Shown here piece by piece: positions 3,435 through 43,568 of a stretch of DNA of 63,716 bases (position 1 is its first letter; each line of letters opens with the position of its first letter). The notes beneath the pieces are model-generated. The model had not been told where the DNA came from. It did not search any database and was given only the letters and a program-made list of their open reading frames with translations. The stretch comes from Candidatus Peregrinibacteria bacterium. Its GTDB lineage: Bacteria > Patescibacteriota > Gracilibacteria > UBA1369 > LOWO2-01-FULL-3. The DNA lies in assembly GCA_016206505.1 (NCBI GenBank), contig JACQRJ010000027.1:1-63716 (forward strand), in the 5' to 3' direction. Made by a program: the position numbers and the translations under genes.

Positions 3435-5831
3435 ATGAGCACGAAATTCAAAGTTGCAGTGCTGTGCGGCGGCCCTTCGCTTGAAAGAGGCATTTCTTTA
3501 AATTCCGCCCGCTCCGTGATGGATCACCTCCAGTCTGAGCAAATTGAAATCGTCCCGATTTACTTCGATCATTTCAAAAATCCTTATCGCATTTCCAGAT
3601 CGCAGCTTTATTCCAATACTCCTTCCGATTTTGATTTTAAGTTGATGGCCACTTCAAAGCCGCTCAAGAATGCCGCTTTTGAAAAATTGCTAAAAGGAGT
3701 TGATCTGGCTTTTCCTGTAATGCATGGTGCTTTTGGTGAAGATGGGGAGATTCAGGGCATTTTGGAAAAATTTGCCGTCCCATATGTCGGTTCCGAAAAA
3801 GAAGCGTGCAGAATTTGTTTTGATAAATATCGCGCAAACGAATTTATCAGGAAACATGGTTTCCATACGCTGCCTTCCACTGTTTTAAAAATTCACGAAC
3901 CGGACGAATTTTTGCATATTCTCACGAAATTCTTCACCGCTCATAAACTCAAAAGAGCAATAGTAAAGCCTGCAACCGGAGGATCTTCTATCGGAGTTTA
4001 TTCTGTAAATAATGTTGATGAAGCAATCAAGGCGGCCAATAACATCTTCAAAAAGCGCATCGATACCCGTGTTGTTGTTGAACCTTTTGCCGATGGTATC
4101 GAATTTACAGTTATCATTCTCCAAAACCGTTTTGGCCTTCCTGTAGCGCTTTTTCCTACAGAAATAGAAACGGATTATGCGGAAAATCAGATTTTTGATT
4201 TTCGCAAAAAATATCTCGCCACCAGACAAGTCACTTATCATTGTCCTCCGCGCTTTTCAGCGGATATTACCGAAGCTATCCAGATTCAGGCCAAACAGCT
4301 TTTTAAGCTCTTAAACATGCGTGATTTTGCCCGTTTTGATGGCTGGCTCTTCCGGGATGGCAAAAAGGGCTTTAAAATCTGGTTTTCCGATTTCAATCCG
4401 ATCAGCGGCATGGAGCAAAATAGTTTTCTTTTTCTCCAATCGGCGCAAGTAGGATTCAGTCACGGAGATTTGCTGAATTTTATTTTACGCAATGCTGCCG
4501 CCCGCAGCGGTCTGACTTTCCCTGAAAAACCCTTAGACGGTTTTCAGCACTTCCGCAAAAAAGATATCAATGTCCTCTTTGGCGGAAGCACTTCCGAACG
4601 TCAGGTTTCCATAATGAGCGGCACCAATGCCTGGCTGAAACTGCGCAAATCAAAAAAATACCGACCTCATCCGTATCTTCTCGATCTCGATGATAAGACA
4701 GTCTGGCGCTTGCCTTATTCCAAAACGCTGAATCATACTGTCGAGGAAATTTCCGCAAACTGTCACGCTGCAAAAAAGGCCGAAAAAATTCTTGGACCGA
4801 TAAGAAAACTCCTTTTACAGGAAATCGGCGCTTTACCTGGACATTTAAATGAGGAGCTTTTTATTCCCGAAAAAATGACTTTAACCGATTTTTTGAAAAA
4901 TTCCCCCTATGTCTTTATCGGATTGCACGGAGGGATAGGGGAGGATGGCACTTTGCAAAAAATGCTGGAAAAAATGCATAAGCCATTTAATGGCTCAGAT
5001 TCGAAGGCCTCGGCTCTTTGCATGGATAAATATTTGACCATTCAGGCTCTGAAAGATTTGGATGGACAGGGAATCTATGTGCCGCGCCAGTCGCTTGTCA
5101 TCGTTGCTGATCTTTTGAAATTAAAAAACAACGCATTGAAAGATTTTTGGCAAAATTTGATGCTGCATTTGAATTGTAAAAAAATAGTTGTTAAGCCCCG
5201 GGCCGACGGCTGTTCCACCGGCATTATGAAGCTTAATTCTTTCAAAGATTTGGCCATTTATCTCGATATAATTCGCAAAAAATTGCCTCACATTCCAAAA
5301 AATACCTTCAAAGATCAGGCCGGAATCATCGAAATGCCTCATATCCCGCCAAAAGATTTGATTTTTGAACAATTCATCACTACCGACAAAGTTCGCATCA
5401 TAAAAAACAAACTTAAATGGCAGAAAAATTCCGGCTGGATCGAAATTACGATGGGCCTGATCGGCAAAGAAAATCAGATGCAAGCTCTAAATCCGAGTTT
5501 GACCGTAGCTTTGGGCGATGTTTTGAGTGTTGAAGAAAAATTCCAGGGCGGAACAGGCGTAAATATCACGCCGCCGCCACAGCCCTATGTGAAGCAAAAA
5601 GCCATAGATATGGCAAAAAAACGCATGGAAATTGTGGCCAAAAAAGTAGAACTAAAAAACTACGCCCGCGTCGATGCCTTCATGGAAACCCAAACCGGCG
5701 AAATCATCATCATCGAAGTCAATACCACTCCCGCATTGACTCCATCAACCGTCCTTTATCATCAGGCTTTGACAGAGCCTACGCCAATCTATCCGACGGA
5801 ACTTTTGGAACAGATCATTGAAAATTCTTGA
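3435..5831 (+). CDS. ddl: Tandem fusion of two D-alanine--D-alanine ligase (ATP-grasp) units
   Basis: 798 aa. The N half starts KVAVLCGGPSLERGISLNSA and carries HGAFGEDGEIQGILE and KPATGGSSIG. The C half restarts INVLFGGSTSERQVSIMSG and carries HGGIGEDGTLQKMLE, KPRADGCSTG and EVNTTPALTPSTV. Confidence 0.85.
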   Translation: MSTKFKVAVLCGGPSLERGISLNSARSVMDHLQSEQIEIVPIYFDHFKNPYRISRSQLYSNTPSDFDFKLMATSKPLKNAAFEKLLKGVDLAFPVMHGAFGEDGEIQGILEKFAVPYVGSEKEACRICFDKYRANEFIRKHGFHTLPSTVLKIHEPDEFLHILTKFFTAHKLKRAIVKPATGGSSIGVYSVNNVDEAIKAANNIFKKRIDTRVVVEPFADGIEFTVIILQNRFGLPVALFPTEIETDYAENQIFDFRKKYLATRQVTYHCPPRFSADITEAIQIQAKQLFKLLNMRDFARFDGWLFRDGKKGFKIWFSDFNPISGMEQNSFLFLQSAQVGFSHGDLLNFILRNAAARSGLTFPEKPLDGFQHFRKKDINVLFGGSTSERQVSIMSGTNAWLKLRKSKKYRPHPYLLDLDDKTVWRLPYSKTLNHTVEEISANCHAAKKAEKILGPIRKLLLQEIGALPGHLNEELFIPEKMTLTDFLKNSPYVFIGLHGGIGEDGTLQKMLEKMHKPFNGSDSKASALCMDKYLTIQALKDLDGQGIYVPRQSLVIVADLLKLKNNALKDFWQNLMLHLNCKKIVVKPRADGCSTGIMKLNSFKDLAIYLDIIRKKLPHIPKNTFKDQAGIIEMPHIPPKDLIFEQFITTDKVRIIKNKLKWQKNSGWIEITMGLIGKENQMQALNPSLTVALGDVLSVEEKFQGGTGVNITPPPQPYVKQKAIDMAKKRMEIVAKKVELKNYARVDAFMETQTGEIIIIEVNTTPALTPSTVLYHQALTEPTPIYPTELLEQIIENS

Positions 5832-10679: not shown

Positions 10680-11852
10680 ATGGCAACAGAACAGGCAAAC
10701 CCTCGTGAAGGCATGGAAGAACGATTCCCCGGTCGCAGACAAGGACTTTATACCAGAGAACAGCAGCTCGGATTTATTGTAAGAGATCGTTTGCATGAAG
10801 TAAGGCCTGCCGACTTATGTTATCCTCAGAACAAATTCGCCGAAGATGGAAAAGATGGCAAGACTGTAAACACTACTGGAGCTGCCTTAAGAGCTGATAT
10901 AACCAGATTTTTTGACCGTTTGGAAGGAAAAGTTGATGCCACCAAACTTGAATTAATAAGGCAAAGTTTTGAGACAAGTGTCGCGATATGGGAAGAAGCC
11001 GGACTTTTCTCGGAAGCAAGAACGAAACGCGGTTATCGCAAGCCAAATTTTGAAGAAGACTACAGAGCTCTATTCGGAATGGAAGATACTGACATGATGG
11101 CCGCAGGTAAAGGACTCGATAGAGGTTACGGTCGAGCCGTTTGGGCTCCTGAAGACGTACCTGTGGCATCGAAAGATCCTAAAACTTTGACATATCTGAA
11201 ATTGGCAAAGGGGACTCTTTTGGAAGCATATCATGGCACAGCGGGCGGCAAGGCCCCAAACACTCTATTGGTCGGGCCGAATAAAAAAGTTTTAACCGCA
11301 GATCAGATCGACTTGAGCAAAATTCTCTGGCAATGGGAACGCTATAAAAAGTCGGGCATTGTGTATAACCCAAGAGAACTTGATCCGAGAACACACGGCG
11401 GCCAAACGGAAGAAGAAATGCTTGCCGCATTGCAAGGTACTGAAAAGACAACGGGCGGAGTACTACGCATGGAACGTGATCAGCTCATTATGCCCAAAGA
11501 TGTGGGACAAACTCAAATGAGTGACACAGATTGGCACGCCGCTATAAAAGAAGGAAAACTTCCAAAAGGAGTTAGGGCACAAGACGCTAAGCAAGCCCTT
11601 GCTTACATAATCCATTGTTTGAAAACAGAAGGTTGGATTCCAGATTATTATGATCATGAAACTCCTGCAAATTCAAGAATAGCCTTGGCACCGGAAACAT
11701 ACATTCCGGACGAATCAGATGTCGGCGCGGTTCCTGCGTTCCACTGGCCTACCCGCTATGGGCGGTTCTACGCGGGCGGGTACCGTGCAGATCGTCGGCG
11801 CAGTGACTATGGCGTGCGCGGCGGGGTGAGAAAAAACAATGAGGCTGCTTAG
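10680..11852 (+). CDS. Orphan protein carrying a DGR-like variable region at its C-terminus (candidate DGR target)
   Basis: 390-aa ORF that is Arg-rich, unlike its Lys-rich neighbours. The 3' end is locally GC-rich: 42 of 60 nt are G/C in 11761-11820 by hand count. The last ~25 codons align to a downstream template-like copy. Confidence 0.6.
   Translation: MATEQANPREGMEERFPGRRQGLYTREQQLGFIVRDRLHEVRPADLCYPQNKFAEDGKDGKTVNTTGAALRADITRFFDRLEGKVDATKLELIRQSFETSVAIWEEAGLFSEARTKRGYRKPNFEEDYRALFGMEDTDMMAAGKGLDRGYGRAVWAPEDVPVASKDPKTLTYLKLAKGTLLEAYHGTAGGKAPNTLLVGPNKKVLTADQIDLSKILWQWERYKKSGIVYNPRELDPRTHGGQTEEEMLAALQGTEKTTGGVLRMERDQLIMPKDVGQTQMSDTDWHAAIKEGKLPKGVRAQDAKQALAYIIHCLKTEGWIPDYYDHETPANSRIALAPETYIPDESDVGAVPAFHWPTRYGRFYAGGYRADRRRSDYGVRGGVRKNNEAA
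11757..11830 (+). other. Candidate DGR variable repeat (VR)
   Basis: Ungapped 74-nt alignment to 11949-12022. 21 mismatches, 17 of them where the partner has A. Ends with the A-free block GGCGTGCGCGGCGGG. Confidence 0.6.
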
Positions 11853-11948
11853 TCTTTGGACTTTAGTTCTTCTTTATTTTTTTTCTTTATCTTTTATGCA
11901 AAAAGTTTAATACTAAAACAACGGTGAATAGCAACTCGATGTCTCTTT

Positions 11949-12022
11949 TATAGACAATTCAACGCGGACAGGAACAATGCAGACAATCGGAACACGAACA
12001 GTGGCGTGCGCGGCGGGATGAG
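11949..12022 (+). repeat. Candidate DGR template repeat (TR)
   Basis: The intergenic copy of the VR is rich in AAY codons in the VR frame (YRQFNADRNNADNRNTNSGVRGGM). 25 A residues, 17 of them substituted in the VR. Confidence 0.6.
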
Positions 12023-12025
12023 GAA

Positions 12026-12250
12026 TTATGTGCTTTGTGTTGCCCTGAGCCAGCCACCAAGCATTCTACCGATCTCCGCTAATTTTGTTTGTGTTTGAAA
12101 AATCTTGGTTTCGTTTACCAATCTCAATTCCAGAAATAGGCGCAGTTTTATTGTAGTTATTTCAAGTTGGCTGCTCGCTTTAATTAAATATGAGGCCTTC
12201 AGAGTTTTTGGTGCATTTTTGGCCATGATTAGATCTTCCATGCATGACAT
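12026..12250 (-). pseudogene. avd: Truncated Avd / four-helix-bundle (23S rRNA IVS protein family) gene
   Basis: 74 aa. The C-terminus TKLAEIGRMLGGWLRA resembles the last helix of Avd/four-helix-bundle proteins, which are normally ~115-130 aa. An in-frame stop lies 5 codons upstream of the ATG. The stop codon abuts the TR end. Confidence 0.55.
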
Positions 12251-12424
12251 GATGGAGGTTCCCTAAAGCTAAGTTAATAAAAAAATTTGACTGGCTGATT
12301 TATGAAAAGTTTTTTTGAAATAAAAAAACGATCTAGTCTAGTAACTTTTGTATGTCACAATGCTTGCGAATTTATTAATCATATAGTATGATTATCTATA
12401 TTAATTAAATTAACTAATTTTACT

Positions 12425-12661
12425 ATGATTTACACTTTGTCTATGTTTAACACCGGTCAAATTACTCTGCCTAAATCTTGGAGAGCCAAATATAAAACCA
12501 CCAAGTTTATTGCTGAAGACACGAAAGATGGATTGCTTATTAAGCCATTGGTTAAGGACGAAACGGTCTATTACGAAGACGAAAAAGGCTTTGGTATTTA
12601 TTGTGAAAGTGGATTGGATATAGAAAAATTTAAACAAGCTATCAAGAAAATGGATGGATAA
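12425..12661 (+). CDS. AbrB/MazE/SpoVT-type antitoxin
   Basis: N-terminal swapped-hairpin-like motif GQITLPKSWRAKY. Overlaps the downstream toxin gene by 8 nt. Confidence 0.7.
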   Translation: MIYTLSMFNTGQITLPKSWRAKYKTTKFIAEDTKDGLLIKPLVKDETVYYEDEKGFGIYCESGLDIEKFKQAIKKMDG

Positions 12662-12893
12662 AATTCAAAAAATATTAAACAAATTGACAAAGAAAAAAAG
12701 ACAGCAGATCTTGGAAATTTGGCGAAAAATAATAAATAACGATCTTGCTGATTTAAAGCCAAAAAAGCTCAAAGGATTCGCTAATTATTATCGCATCCGC
12801 TCTGGTAACATGCGTCTTGTTTACAAGATCGAAAACAGCACAAACATCCTAATAAATATCGATTACCGTAAAGATGCTTATAAGAATCTCTGA
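12654..12893 (+). CDS. RelE/ParE family toxin
   Basis: YRIRSGNMRLVYKIENSTNILINIDYRKDAY matches the RelE/StbE core pattern (YRIRVGDYRIIY...HRKDVY). Confidence 0.75.
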   Translation: MDKIQKILNKLTKKKRQQILEIWRKIINNDLADLKPKKLKGFANYYRIRSGNMRLVYKIENSTNILINIDYRKDAYKNL

Positions 12894-12902
12894 CCTGGCA
12901 GT

Positions 12903-13847
12903 CTAAAAAACCTCGCCCGTGGTGCAAACATGAAAAGCAAAATACGAAGCCGTGACGGCTTCTGCCGAACCTGTTATTGCCTGTTTAAATTCAGTATCGC
13001 AACAATCTCCGGCCGCAAAAACTCCTTCGAGATTTGTTTCAGTTCTGCGATTTATAATAATTTCTTTTTTGTCATTCAGCGCCACTCCAAGCTGCCCCGC
13101 AAGTTCGGTTTGGGCATCATGACCAATTGCCAAAAACACACCCTGCATTTCTACCGTCTGCCCTGAAAATTTTCCTTCTCCGGCCTTAAAACGCACACCT
13201 GTAACATTTTTTCCATCGCCCAAAATTTCCTCAATTTCGCTCTTAAATAAAACTTCAATTTTCGCATTTTTCTTCACTCTCTCACCATTTATCGGCTCAG
13301 CTCTAAGCACATCCCTTCTCACCACGATATAAACTTTGCTCGCGTGCTCGCTCAAAAACAAAGCTTCCTTGGCCGCGCTATCGCCTCCGCCCACAATACA
13401 GACAACTTTCTCCTTAAAAAAAGCACCATCGCATAATGCGCAATAAGAAACCCCGCGATTTTCATATTCTTTTTCGCCGGGAGCATTGAGCTTTCTATGC
13501 TTCGATCCCGTAGCAAATAAGAGGCTCTTGCCAACGTATTCGCCTGAAGTGGTCGTTACCTGATATTGTGGAAAACCTTCTTTATCCGGCAGTTTGGCAA
13601 CTTTCACCGCTCTTTCATTTTTAATTTCAGCACCGGCAGCAATAGCGTGATCGTATAGTTGCGTAGCTAGATCCGGGCCTGAAATAGTTTTTATTCCCGG
13701 CCAGTTTTCCACCAGATGCGTCGTGGTGATAAGACCCCCGGGCATTTCCGCCAAAGTAAGAGTTTTAAGACCGAGTCTTGTCCCATACATTGCAGCAGAA
13801 AGCCCGCTACACCCCCCTCCAATAATTATGAAATCATATTCCTGCAT
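12903..13847 (-). CDS. trxB: Thioredoxin-disulfide reductase
   Basis: FAD motif DFIIIGGGCSGLSAA, redox CALCDG, NADPH motif VGGGDSAAKEA. Confidence 0.9.
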   Translation of the reverse strand: MQEYDFIIIGGGCSGLSAAMYGTRLGLKTLTLAEMPGGLITTTHLVENWPGIKTISGPDLATQLYDHAIAAGAEIKNERAVKVAKLPDKEGFPQYQVTTTSGEYVGKSLLFATGSKHRKLNAPGEKEYENRGVSYCALCDGAFFKEKVVCIVGGGDSAAKEALFLSEHASKVYIVVRRDVLRAEPINGERVKKNAKIEVLFKSEIEEILGDGKNVTGVRFKAGEGKFSGQTVEMQGVFLAIGHDAQTELAGQLGVALNDKKEIIINRRTETNLEGVFAAGDCCDTEFKQAITGSAEAVTASYFAFHVCTTGEVF

Positions 13848-26980: not shown

Positions 26981-27320
26981 TGGTGGGCCTGCCTGGACTT
27001 GAACCAGGGACCAATCGGTTATGCATCTCACAACCGGTTTCCCGGCCTCTTTCGAGTTTGTAAGCGGGACTATCCCTTGAGTCCCATTGACTGGAACTCT
27101 CTGCCGTCTAGTCTCTACACCTTCCCGCTCATTGAGGGGGCTTGGCTCGGGATTGCCATAATCACATTGTGATTTTAGGTTTCCCCGAATTTGACAGATT
27201 CTACCCCGCATACGCGGGGCAGCCCGTTGATATTGACGCATATCGTGCTAGAAACAATCCACAGCACGAGTTAGCGTCGTATCTTTAAGCCGACTGCTCT
27301 AACCACTGAGCTACAGGCCC
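26981..27320 (-). tRNA. tRNA(CAU), most similar to tRNA-Ile2/elongator Met type, interrupted in the anticodon loop
   Basis: Exon 1 is GGGCCTGTAGCTCAGTGGTTAGAGCAGTCGGCT. Exon 2 is CATAACCGATTGGTCCCTGGTTCAAGTCCAGGCAGGCCCACCA. Joined, they give a canonical 76-nt cloverleaf with the loop CU-CAU-AA. It resembles my recollection of E. coli ileX. Confidence 0.85.
27024..27287 (-). ncRNA. Group I intron (IC3-like, no ORF) in the tRNA anticodon loop
   Basis: Minus-strand core elements GUCAAAUUCGGGGAAACCUAA, GGCAAUCCCGAGCCAAGCC and GGAAGGUGUAGAGACUAGACGGCA match the conserved P4-P6 and P7/P3/P8 cores of the Azoarcus and Anabaena tRNA introns. It ends GAGAUG (omega-G). The IGS-like GGGCUG can pair with exon CGGCU(U). 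Confidence 0.8.
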
Positions 27321-38192: not shown

Positions 38193-38298
38193 GAAGTAGC
38201 GAGCAGACACGAGCGCAAGCGAGTGTCCATAGCCGAAGCGGTTCGCGAATTTAGCGAACCCGAAGGCTTTAGGAGAACCTTTCAAGAAATTTGCAAAC
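38193..38298 (-). repeat. Intergenic structured repeat, copy 1 (divergent/partial)
   Basis: Shares AGCCGAAGCG, the hairpin GGTTCGC-GAATTTA-GCGAACC and GGAGAAC..TTTCAAG with copies 2 and 3. Its right end overlaps the tmk stop. Confidence 0.75.
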
Positions 38299-39184: not shown

Positions 39185-39321
39185 CAAAGTAGCGAAATTT
39201 GCGCTCCAAAGCCGAAGTGGCACGCGAATTTAGCGTGACCGTAGGCGAAGGAGAACTTTCAAGCAAAATGCAAACGTACGTGCAGCATCTTGCGTAGAAA
39301 GTTCAGCAAATTCCTATTGAA
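39185..39321 (-). repeat. Intergenic structured repeat, copy 2
   Basis: 137 nt, ungapped. 123/137 identical to copy 3 by hand alignment. Starts 3 nt after the tRNA CCA end. Its right end overlaps the dut stop codon. Confidence 0.9.
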
Positions 39322-39784
39322 CAAAATTATATCCACCCGTACTCCCAAACCCTCCGCGGCTCTCTACAGAGATTTCTTCAACTTCCTGCCACTGAAACTT
39401 ATCAATTTTTACAAAAACTCCCTGAGCGATCTTTTCGCCGCGCAAAATTTTCACAGTATCCGAAGTGAAATTATAAACCAAAACTTTTATCTCATCATTC
39501 GGCCCGCAATAATCATGATCGATAATCCCAAAACCATGTGGTGGACTGATGCCTTTCTTTATTGGTGTACTGCTGCGACTTGCGATCACAAGCATGTAAC
39601 CTTTTGGCACTTCTACGATCAAATTTGCAGCAACCAAGCCGATTTTTGCCGGCAAAACCTCGGTGTCTTCGCGCGCGATAATGTCAAAACCAACCGAACC
39701 GTCGGTTTCATAGACCGGCAAAGGCAAGGATTTATCGATTCTTTTTATCTTAACTTCCATCACAAAGTAAGATAAATTACTCAA
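39314..39784 (-). CDS. dut: dUTP diphosphatase
   Basis: GSVGFDI, SRSS, GIIDHDY and C-terminal RGGFGSTG dUTPase motifs. Confidence 0.85.
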   Translation of the reverse strand: MSNLSYFVMEVKIKRIDKSLPLPVYETDGSVGFDIIAREDTEVLPAKIGLVAANLIVEVPKGYMLVIASRSSTPIKKGISPPHGFGIIDHDYCGPNDEIKVLVYNFTSDTVKILRGEKIAQGVFVKIDKFQWQEVEEISVESRGGFGSTGGYNFVQ

Positions 39785-43419: not shown

Positions 43420-43556
43420 CAAAGTAGCGAGATTTGCAATCCGAAGCCGAAGCGTCACGCGAATTTAGCGTGACCGGAGGCGAAGGAGAACTTTCAAACA
43501 AAATGCCAACGAAGGTGCAGCATTTTGTGTAGAAAGTTCAGCAAATCCCTATTGAA
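43420..43556 (-). repeat. Intergenic structured repeat, copy 3
   Basis: 137 nt. Hairpins GTCACGC-GAATTTA-GCGTGAC and ACAAAATGC-N13-GCATTTTGT. Ends 13 nt from the nusG stop. Confidence 0.9.
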
Positions 43557-43568
43557 AAACATCAAAAT

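Follow-up and report, generated by a model that had tools for sequence, protein, structure and literature searches.

The closest described counterpart of the locus analysed here is architecture B3 of the diversity-generating retroelements (DGRs), also written TR-(avd)-RT, in which a template repeat (TR) is followed by a reverse-strand avd gene and then by the gene for the reverse transcriptase (RT) (Wu et al. 2018, PMC5758913). In that survey RTs were searched first, followed by a screen for repeats between TR and variable region (VR) (PMC5758913). For DGRs of the candidate phyla radiation (CPR), one adjacent target per cassette has been reported (PMC5758913; CPR/DPANN survey cited there as ref. 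23). Our subject is a contig of 63,716 nt from a Candidatus Peregrinibacteria bacterium (JACQRJ010000027.1, in the following the window), in which an intact target gene is followed by fragments of TR, avd and RT. We consider it likely that this locus is a degraded TR-(avd)-RT element, a fossil cassette beside an intact target gene with a frozen VR.

Comparison with described systems

The remnants in the window are arranged in the order TR (+), avd (-) and RT tail (+), and the same order is found in the complete cassettes of the relatives L001, L007, L061 and L043. As in B3, the VR lies at the 3' end of the target gene, the TR is on the same strand, and avd is on the opposite strand and abuts the TR. 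Further common properties are adenine-specific mismatches, a template rich in AAY codons, one adjacent target and a CPR host. Unlike B3, the window has kept only 12 codons of the RT, and it is without the initial ~40 codons of avd, the ~47 nt at the 5' end of the TR and the leader that precedes the TR; its target belongs to a family with neither a Pfam or NCBIfam match nor a significant Foldseek neighbour. The initial annotation of this DNA had taken the inverted avd as a sign of decay. This point has to be withdrawn, as the opposite-strand position is native to architecture B3 (PMC5758913) and to the intact relatives.

The DGR of phage BPP-1 (mtd-avd-TR-brt) likewise combines a C-terminal VR, a TR, an Avd four-helix bundle and an RT, and it has a GC-rich block common to the 3' ends of VR and TR, after which both differ. 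In BPP-1, however, avd is located upstream of the TR on the same strand, whereas in the lineage considered here it is inverted and abuts the TR 3' end. The structured spacer RNA of BPP-1 lies 3' of the TR; the putative structured RNA of this lineage lies 5' of it. Moreover, the matches of the window target to lectin folds are weak (E 1.5-10), and the copy in the window appears non-functional. The remote targets of Treponema denticola and Legionella resemble the locus in having a VR with a block like the initiation of mutagenic homing (IMH) sequence and no functional RT beside the target. These targets are not adjoined by fragments of TR, avd or RT, whereas the window has fragments of all three, which shows that a once-complete local cassette decayed in place.

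The reference neighbourhoods are L001 (P0004), L007/L008 (P0007), L061 (P0003), L043 (a Patescibacteria metagenome-assembled genome) and L064 (P0048). The relatives come from Gracilibacteria/Peregrinibacteria-type metagenomes; L065 is identical to L001, and L066 is the L007 contig.

Variable region and template repeat

A scripted comparison of positions 11757-11830 with 11949-12022 results in an ungapped alignment of 74 nt with 53 identities and 21 mismatches, which reproduces exactly the alignment originally made by hand. A repeat finder, run independently, groups the same pair as family D7 (77 nt, 71%). The mismatches are concentrated at template adenines (17 of 21). The downstream copy holds 25 A, 17 of which are replaced in the VR, and the VR itself contains only 9. 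The adenine bias, already part of the initial annotation, thereby withstands an enrichment check (hypergeometric P = 1.6e-7 for at least 17 of 21 mismatches on the 25 of 74 positions that are TR adenines). When the local 2 kb are shuffled (n = 30), the best 74-nt window reaches at most 41 identities, compared to the 53 observed. The six AAY codons of the TR correspond to TAC, TAC, CGT, CGT, CGC and GAC in the VR, and both copies share an identical A-free block, GGCGTGCGCGGCGGG, at their 3' ends, both as initially stated. The base after this 15-nt GC block is G in the VR and A in the TR (GGGGTGAG versus GGGATGAG), an arrangement kept in all relatives. A promoter and terminator scan of 11700-12950 yielded nothing over shuffled expectation, and no GC-rich hairpin was found 3' of the VR in this region.

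The full extent of the VR (Table 1) is set by the ~113-nt TR of the intact relatives and comprises the last ~35 codons of the target gene. A local template is left only over 11757-11830. The TR of L001 matches positions 11724-11747 of the window to 96%, and the segment encoding HWPTR (11742-11756, CAC TGG CCT ACC CGC) differs from the NWNMN of the family TR (AAC TGG AAT ATG/ACG AAC) mostly at adenines. Since HWPTR is diversified yet has no local TR counterpart, diversification is older than the deletion that truncated the TR (deletion 1, see below).

The present VR can also be assigned to its donor. VR and TR of the window share a TAT at 11757 and 11949, where the TRs of L001, L007 and L061 have AAC, which indicates that the local, lineage-specific TR was the donor. 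Two of the four non-adenine mismatches are located where the TR of the window departs from those of L001, L007 and L061 (ACG versus ACT, AGT versus AAT); at the third, the TR has GAC (VR: GAT), in agreement with the TRs of L061 and L043. Judging from these alignments, as many as three of the four may reflect subsequent drift of the TR. The simplest reading would be that the TR drifted after the last homing event, since an active DGR would have passed such mutations on to the VR.

Remnants of avd and of the RT gene

The 74-aa open reading frame (ORF) 12026-12250 on the reverse strand, whose C-terminus had been compared to the last helix of Avd, is indeed an Avd fragment. It matches the Pfam family bAvd (PF22296, E = 4e-7, profile positions 42-105 of 107) and the NCBIfam family DivGenRetAVD (NF033474, E = 4e-10, positions 40-104 of 104); both scores are below the curated cut-offs, and the fragment lacks the first ~40 profile positions. 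It is 85% identical to residues 41-114 of the Avd of L001, and a tblastn search with full-length Avds covers 12259-12029 (query residues 38-114). As listed, the ORF begins at a Met inside avd, whose ~40 initial codons are deleted, and no frameshifted piece of the N-terminus was found upstream when all frames were translated. Hence the missing part amounts to ~35% of the protein (40 of 114 residues) and not, as first described, to its half. A complete Avd, that is, a four-helix bundle of ~110-130 aa (114 aa in the relatives), is not present in the window. A collection of 5.8 billion proteins, which includes the Logan assemblies of both sequencing runs carrying the locus, holds no other Avd with more than 90% identity to the remnant.

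No match to RVT_1 was found among the 40 larger ORFs of the window searched against Pfam, and six-frame tblastn of eight DGR RTs against the whole window gave no RT-sized match. The reported absence of an RT ORF is therefore correct, but a short 3' remnant of the gene had been overlooked. With the RTs of three intact relatives as queries, tblastn returns only positions 12268-12315 (+), matching the last 11-15 residues (query 312-331 of ~330). The match follows directly after the avd remnant on the expected strand. It ends in KKFDWLIYEKFF before the stop codon, where the RTs of intact relatives end in KKFTWLILEKFID and KYFDWIVLEKLNF, and nucleotide alignments to the RT 3' ends of L001, L007, L061 and L064 terminate at the same stop region. 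An RT 3' remnant in the expected place implies that an RT gene once stood here. An alternative genetic code hiding an RT is ruled out: reading frames as long as 1670 aa stay open under table 11, and tblastn does not rely on predicted ORFs.

Two deletions

The deletions were mapped by pairwise blastn and by a five-way MAFFT alignment of the window with L001, L007, L061 and L043. Positions 11624-11941 align with L001 10954-11271 (79%), which takes in the end of the target gene, the spacer and ~20 nt at the start of the leader. The rest of the ~235-nt leader and the first ~47 nt of the TR are lost in deletion 1, whose junction is at ~11946-11948. Homology resumes with 11955-12244 (L001 11547-11836, 81%); in the comparison with the relatives, 11955-12245/56 is homologous to the 3' two-thirds of the TR and of avd with 81-84% identity. 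It ends at ~12262, corresponding to Avd residue ~38-40, where deletion 2 (~1.05 kb) begins. This deletion extends from avd codon ~40 to RT codon ~315, and its right edge is the RT remnant. The initial annotation had thus identified the template correctly and missed the loss of its 5' third as well as of the upstream leader.

The distant outgroup L043 retains the leader and a full TR, hence the short state of the window is derived. Two Logan assemblies from other runs (SRR12113422 and SRR12113385) are 100% identical to the window over 3214 and 1817 nt, respectively. As they agree base for base, the deletions are real.

Table 1. Features of the DGR locus and its downstream neighbours (positions within the window).
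Feature	Position	Strand	Evidence and remarks
DGR target gene, 390 aa, intact	10680..11852	+	ORF; AlphaFold2 model; family alignment
VR, full extent	11724..11833	+	set by ~113-nt TR of intact relatives; last ~35 codons of target
Conserved spacer after target stop and first ~20 nt of leader	11853..11945	+	leader part CGGTGAATAGCAACTCGATG, 11922-11941; left edge of deletion 1
TR remnant, 3' two-thirds only	11949..12025	+	ends in IMH*-like GGCGGGATGAGG; comparison with relatives, blastn
avd remnant, residues ~38-114 of 114-aa Avd	12026..12262	-	HMM matches, tblastn
RT 3'-end remnant, last 12 codons and stop	12280..12318	+	KKFDWLIYEKFF and stop; tblastn, translation, nucleotide alignment
Toxin-antitoxin pair and promoter region	12346..12893	+	weak Pfam/NCBIfam matches; not a DGR component
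MazE/AbrB-like antitoxin	12425-12661	+	weak match
ParE/RelE-like toxin	12654-12893	+	weak match

Intact relatives

In the relatives, the target gene with its VR (+) is followed by a conserved spacer, a GC-rich leader of ~235 nt, a TR of ~113 nt, an avd gene of 114 aa (-) whose stop codon abuts the TR 3' end, and an RT of ~327 aa (+). The frame-corrected RT has its best PDB match in 8ub7_A (deposited as 'Reverse transcriptase', 328 aa) with E = 1e-36, far ahead of group II intron and retron RTs. We take 8ub7_A to be the DGR RT of the Bordetella phage (bRT). Within the segment that matches the surviving TR of the window, mismatches between VR and TR are located at adenines in 18 of 18 cases in L007 and in 13 of 14 cases in L001. 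Together with the adenine-specific mismatches and the Avd profile matches of the window itself, these homologous cassettes with a DGR-type RT confirm the initial assignment of the locus to the DGRs. The housekeeping genes on either side differ between the relatives, so that the genomic context of the cassette varies.

The RT genes of the relatives contain a (CA)n tract in the loop before motif 3. In three lineages (n = 16, 13 and 31) the gene is out of frame, each exactly one CA unit from a full-length ORF; a fourth lineage (n = 10) is in frame and encodes 333 aa. In more distant RTs that are in frame, this site reads just THT or THTHT. The tracts are located at 12297-12328 in L001, 950-981 in L065, 8266-8291 in L007/L008, 2560-2621 in L061 and 1142-1161 in L064, and L066 carries the tract of L007 on the reverse strand. 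In a fifth relative, L043, the RT is broken at a G9 tract elsewhere in the gene. From its sequence, the (CA)n tract could be a site of slipped-strand ON/OFF switching of the DGR RT, or it could reflect repeated decay. A full-text literature search found no description of such a tract in a DGR RT.

In every intact relative a conserved leader immediately precedes the TR, and the antisense avd adjoins the TR on its 3' side. The leader is located at 11252-11500 in L001, 7222-7470 in L007, 1514-1740 in L061 and ~5320-5550 on the reverse strand of L043. RNAalifold, applied to the leader of four sequences, proposes 87 pairs, 8 of them with compensatory changes, among these the helix GTTTTGTGG/CTACAAAAT versus GTTTCACGG/CTGTGAAAC and the hairpin CCCGC/GCGGG versus TCTC/GAGA. 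A search of the leader and TR region of L001 against Rfam found nothing. From the predicted fold, the DGR RNA of this lineage may have its structured part 5' of the template.

Two further observations concern individual relatives. In L062, the initial ~50 nt of the leader (CGGTGAATAG...GCTACCGTTCAC) occur once more at 92-145, upstream of the target, and are followed there by different sequence; this copy may be the trace of a preceding cassette or of a rearrangement. In L043 (reverse complement, ~1600-1850) the avd frame is split between the LEL motif and the C-terminal helix by ~250 nt of unrelated sequence, which is an insertion.

The target protein and its family

The target protein matched no Pfam or NCBIfam family, as had been stated. 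Besides itself, 30 homologues were found, and all named ones are assigned to Gracilibacteria, Peregrinibacteria or Patescibacteria. We regard them as a conserved, CPR-specific target family, as far as homology searches define it, a finding that corrects the description of the protein as compositionally foreign. The GC-rich and Arg-rich 3' end probably arose as a side effect of replacing adenines in the VR. Given 9 A in the VR versus 25 in the TR, and homologues exclusively from CPR-type organisms, a foreign origin is not required.

In the family alignment, the body of the protein is well conserved and the C-terminal ~30 residues are hypervariable. Within this tail the scaffold VPAF.W....F.A....AD.....GVRGGVRKN is fixed, with the hypervariable positions in between. 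The entropy is 2.62 bits in columns facing a TR codon that has A as its first or second base, compared to 0.74 bits in the other VR columns (P = 3e-6). Some relatives that fall into the same 90% identity cluster differ almost only in the tip: between P0019 and P0039 there are no differences in the body and 17 in the tail, between P0016 and P0033 there are 4 and 16, respectively. Such tip-only variants show that the family is actively diversified outside the window.

The structure of the target was modelled by AlphaFold2 using the family alignment. The full-length model has a predicted local distance difference test score (pLDDT) of 88.4 and a predicted template modelling score (pTM) of 0.84; for the C-terminal 250 aa the values are 92.5 and 0.92. 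Foldseek searches of both models against PDB and BFVD gave no significant neighbour, with no PDB entry below E = 0.3. The weak lists repeatedly contain all three DGR variable proteins of known structure, TaqVP (5vf4), Mtd (1yu1/1yu2) and TvpA (2y3c), as well as formylglycine-generating enzymes (FGEs) and the FGE-like domains of EgtB, OvoA and PvdO, in local matches of 40-58 columns with E 1.5-10. The proposed structural check of the C-terminus thus gave a confident model, and the lectin- or FGE-like fold that had been suggested is reflected in these local matches only; a lectin-like display of the VR may be possible. At the N-terminus, inspection by eye alone revealed neither a signal peptide nor a membrane segment.

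The genome with the locus prefix M0P48_ encodes two paralogous targets, M0P48_02670 and M0P48_04685. One of them, P0007, is located beside a complete cassette. The other, P0006 (L005/L006, 6001-7215), is not accompanied by a TR, avd or RT, and its tip departs at 25 adenine and 15 non-adenine positions from the TR of its own genome. From this comparison P0006 looks like another orphaned or decayed target of the family.

Neighbouring genes and other features of the window

The RT remnant is followed by a toxin-antitoxin pair (Table 1) that is 78.5% identical at the nucleotide level to a pair upstream of the target in L007 (5375-5919). In L001 and L007 other toxin-antitoxin pairs, SocA/Panacea and MNT/HEPN, are located directly after the RT. 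A role of the pair as the agent of deletion was considered and rejected: the RT stop codon survives before it, and the relatives have other such pairs after their RT. The pair is better read as a normal downstream neighbour.

Among the 40 ORFs scanned against Pfam are housekeeping genes of the kind expected in a CPR organism, such as ftsA, ddl, RNase III, nusB, an M17 peptidase, purine synthesis genes, ribosomal protein L1, pilins of a type IV secretion system and SLH surface proteins. A search of the window against Rfam found nothing beyond two tRNAs and a group I intron. The intron (RF00028, 27043-27274, 55.6 bits) splits the anticodon loop of a tRNA with anticodon CAU (Met, fMet or Ile2 type) at 26990-27320 on the reverse strand. 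The exons of this tRNA are GGGCCTGTAGCTCAGTGGTTAGAGCAGTCGGCT and CATAACCGATTGGTCCCTGGTTCAAGTCCAGGCAGGCCCACCA, and it is not called by ARAGORN. The window furthermore contains a direct repeat of 143 nt (39185-39327 and 43420-43562, 89% identity, 4.2 kb apart). Its first copy starts 3 nt after a tRNA-Arg(GCG), and both copies bracket a region with DUF1385 and ribosomal protein L1. A 42-nt core of the repeat (TCC.AAGCCGAAG...CGCGAATTTAGCG...) occurs a third time at 38226-38267.

Fate of the cassette and alternative explanations

The relatives suggest how the locus once worked. An RNA of leader and TR would have been transcribed downstream of the target gene, and a complex of RT and Avd would have copied it into cDNA, misincorporating opposite template adenines. 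With the GC-rich block common to both 3' ends as a guide, this cDNA would then have taken the place of the terminal ~110 nt of the target. Homing of this kind produced the present VR, which differs from the TR at adenines in AAY codons. Later, deletion 1 took the structured leader and the beginning of the TR, and deletion 2 took the beginning of avd and left only the last 12 codons of the RT. What remains should make no RT, no complete Avd and no full template, so that a formerly hypervariable target tip would now be fixed. The initial annotation had left the choice between a fossil and a target or TR served in trans; the two mapped deletions, the RT remnant, the drift of the TR and a VR that is identical in three assemblies favour the fossil. 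The local cassette is almost certainly dead, and we think it probable that diversification of the VR has ceased altogether.

The window agrees to 100% with SRR12113422 and with SRR12113385 in the VR and its flanks, and the 90% identity cluster of the window target consists of a single sequence. Several points nevertheless count against a fossil with a frozen tip. The three assemblies are consensus sequences and as such silent on minority variants. Each match of the RT remnant is weak by itself (E = 0.1-3 against the whole window); rescaled to the ~160 nt in which an RT tail should lie, the values become about 1e-3 to 1e-4. What lends the remnant weight is its position and strand, together with the query coordinates and a stop codon that coincides. 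The avd fragment has no stop codons, and the remnants have kept ~80-85% identity to the relatives, hence the deletions may be recent. The IMH-like block of the VR is intact. Searching a collection of genome contigs with the IMH-block pattern gave 52 loci, of which only L043 is a related cassette; the contig of the window is not among them, which leaves room for a second cassette acting in trans. A metagenome scan with the leader pattern returned only the known contigs L065 and L066 and none of the lineage of the window. The same type of scan with the TR/avd junction pattern specific to the window found nothing.

The main alternative is that the local cassette is dead and the target is served in trans by a second, intact DGR, whose RT, Avd and full TR RNA would yield cDNA that homes via the GC-rich 3' block. 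We regard this as unlikely, although precedents exist: remote DGR targets are documented, and avd, TR and brt are functional in trans (PMC5758913). The M0P48_ genome, with two paralogous targets and one cassette, would offer a parallel within the family, and the window has kept both an intact target gene and the IMH-like block. But a second TR, VR, RT or Avd was not found in the 63.7-kb window, the protein collection including both Logan assemblies holds no second Avd that exceeds 90% identity to the remnant, and the VR shows no variants, neither between the three assemblies nor within its cluster. Of the closest RT homologues, P0048 and P0147 stem from runs other than those with the locus, and no Logan run is shown for P0081, so that none of the three could be linked to the locus in the window. 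In the M0P48_ genome itself, the cassette-less P0006 differs from the genome's TR at 15 non-adenine positions and looks decayed rather than served. Somewhat less probable still is a working split DGR, in which an RT-Avd complex encoded elsewhere in the small CPR genome diversifies the target, via a remote full-length TR or via the surviving local fragment of short TR and antisense avd. If true, the retained ~300 nt would be the minimal cis RNA needed by the inverted-avd lineage.

Two more explanations deny the fossil altogether. VR/TR repeats can confuse short-read assemblers, and the contig is derived from a metagenome, so that the deletions might be assembly artefacts, for example a collapse of VR and TR, with an intact cassette in reality. 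We hold this to be very improbable: the structure recurs base for base in two independent assemblies of different runs, VR and TR are with 72% identity too divergent for a collapse, and neither junction lies between homologous positions of VR and TR. Finally, the downstream copy might be the tail of a decayed paralogue, as the initial annotation had itself considered, or a chance repeat with a coincidental adenine pattern and no retroelement involved. The copy is short and intergenic, and has four non-adenine mismatches. However, the adenine bias and the identity far above shuffled controls do not fit this view; the copy is orthologous to bona fide TRs located between conserved leader and avd in five related cassettes, it is flanked by remnants of avd and RT, and the variability of the whole family follows the adenine codons of the TR. 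The alignment with the relatives, the adenine statistics, the RT remnant and the column entropy refute this explanation, for which we see practically no chance left.

Implications for DGRs in the CPR

In itself the locus matters little, being an ordinary decayed DGR of known architecture. Its value is that of a fully mapped example of DGR death, in which two deletions left remnants of TR, avd and RT and the target was kept. A hypervariable protein tip can thus be fixed and retained after its diversifier has been lost. Remnants of this kind, without an RT, are presumably under-counted in surveys that start from the RT, as follows from the survey method. The (CA)n tract and the structured leader of the intact relatives are of more interest than the locus of the window. 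For the CPR, the comparison defines a specific family of DGR targets with a confident fold that has no structural match.

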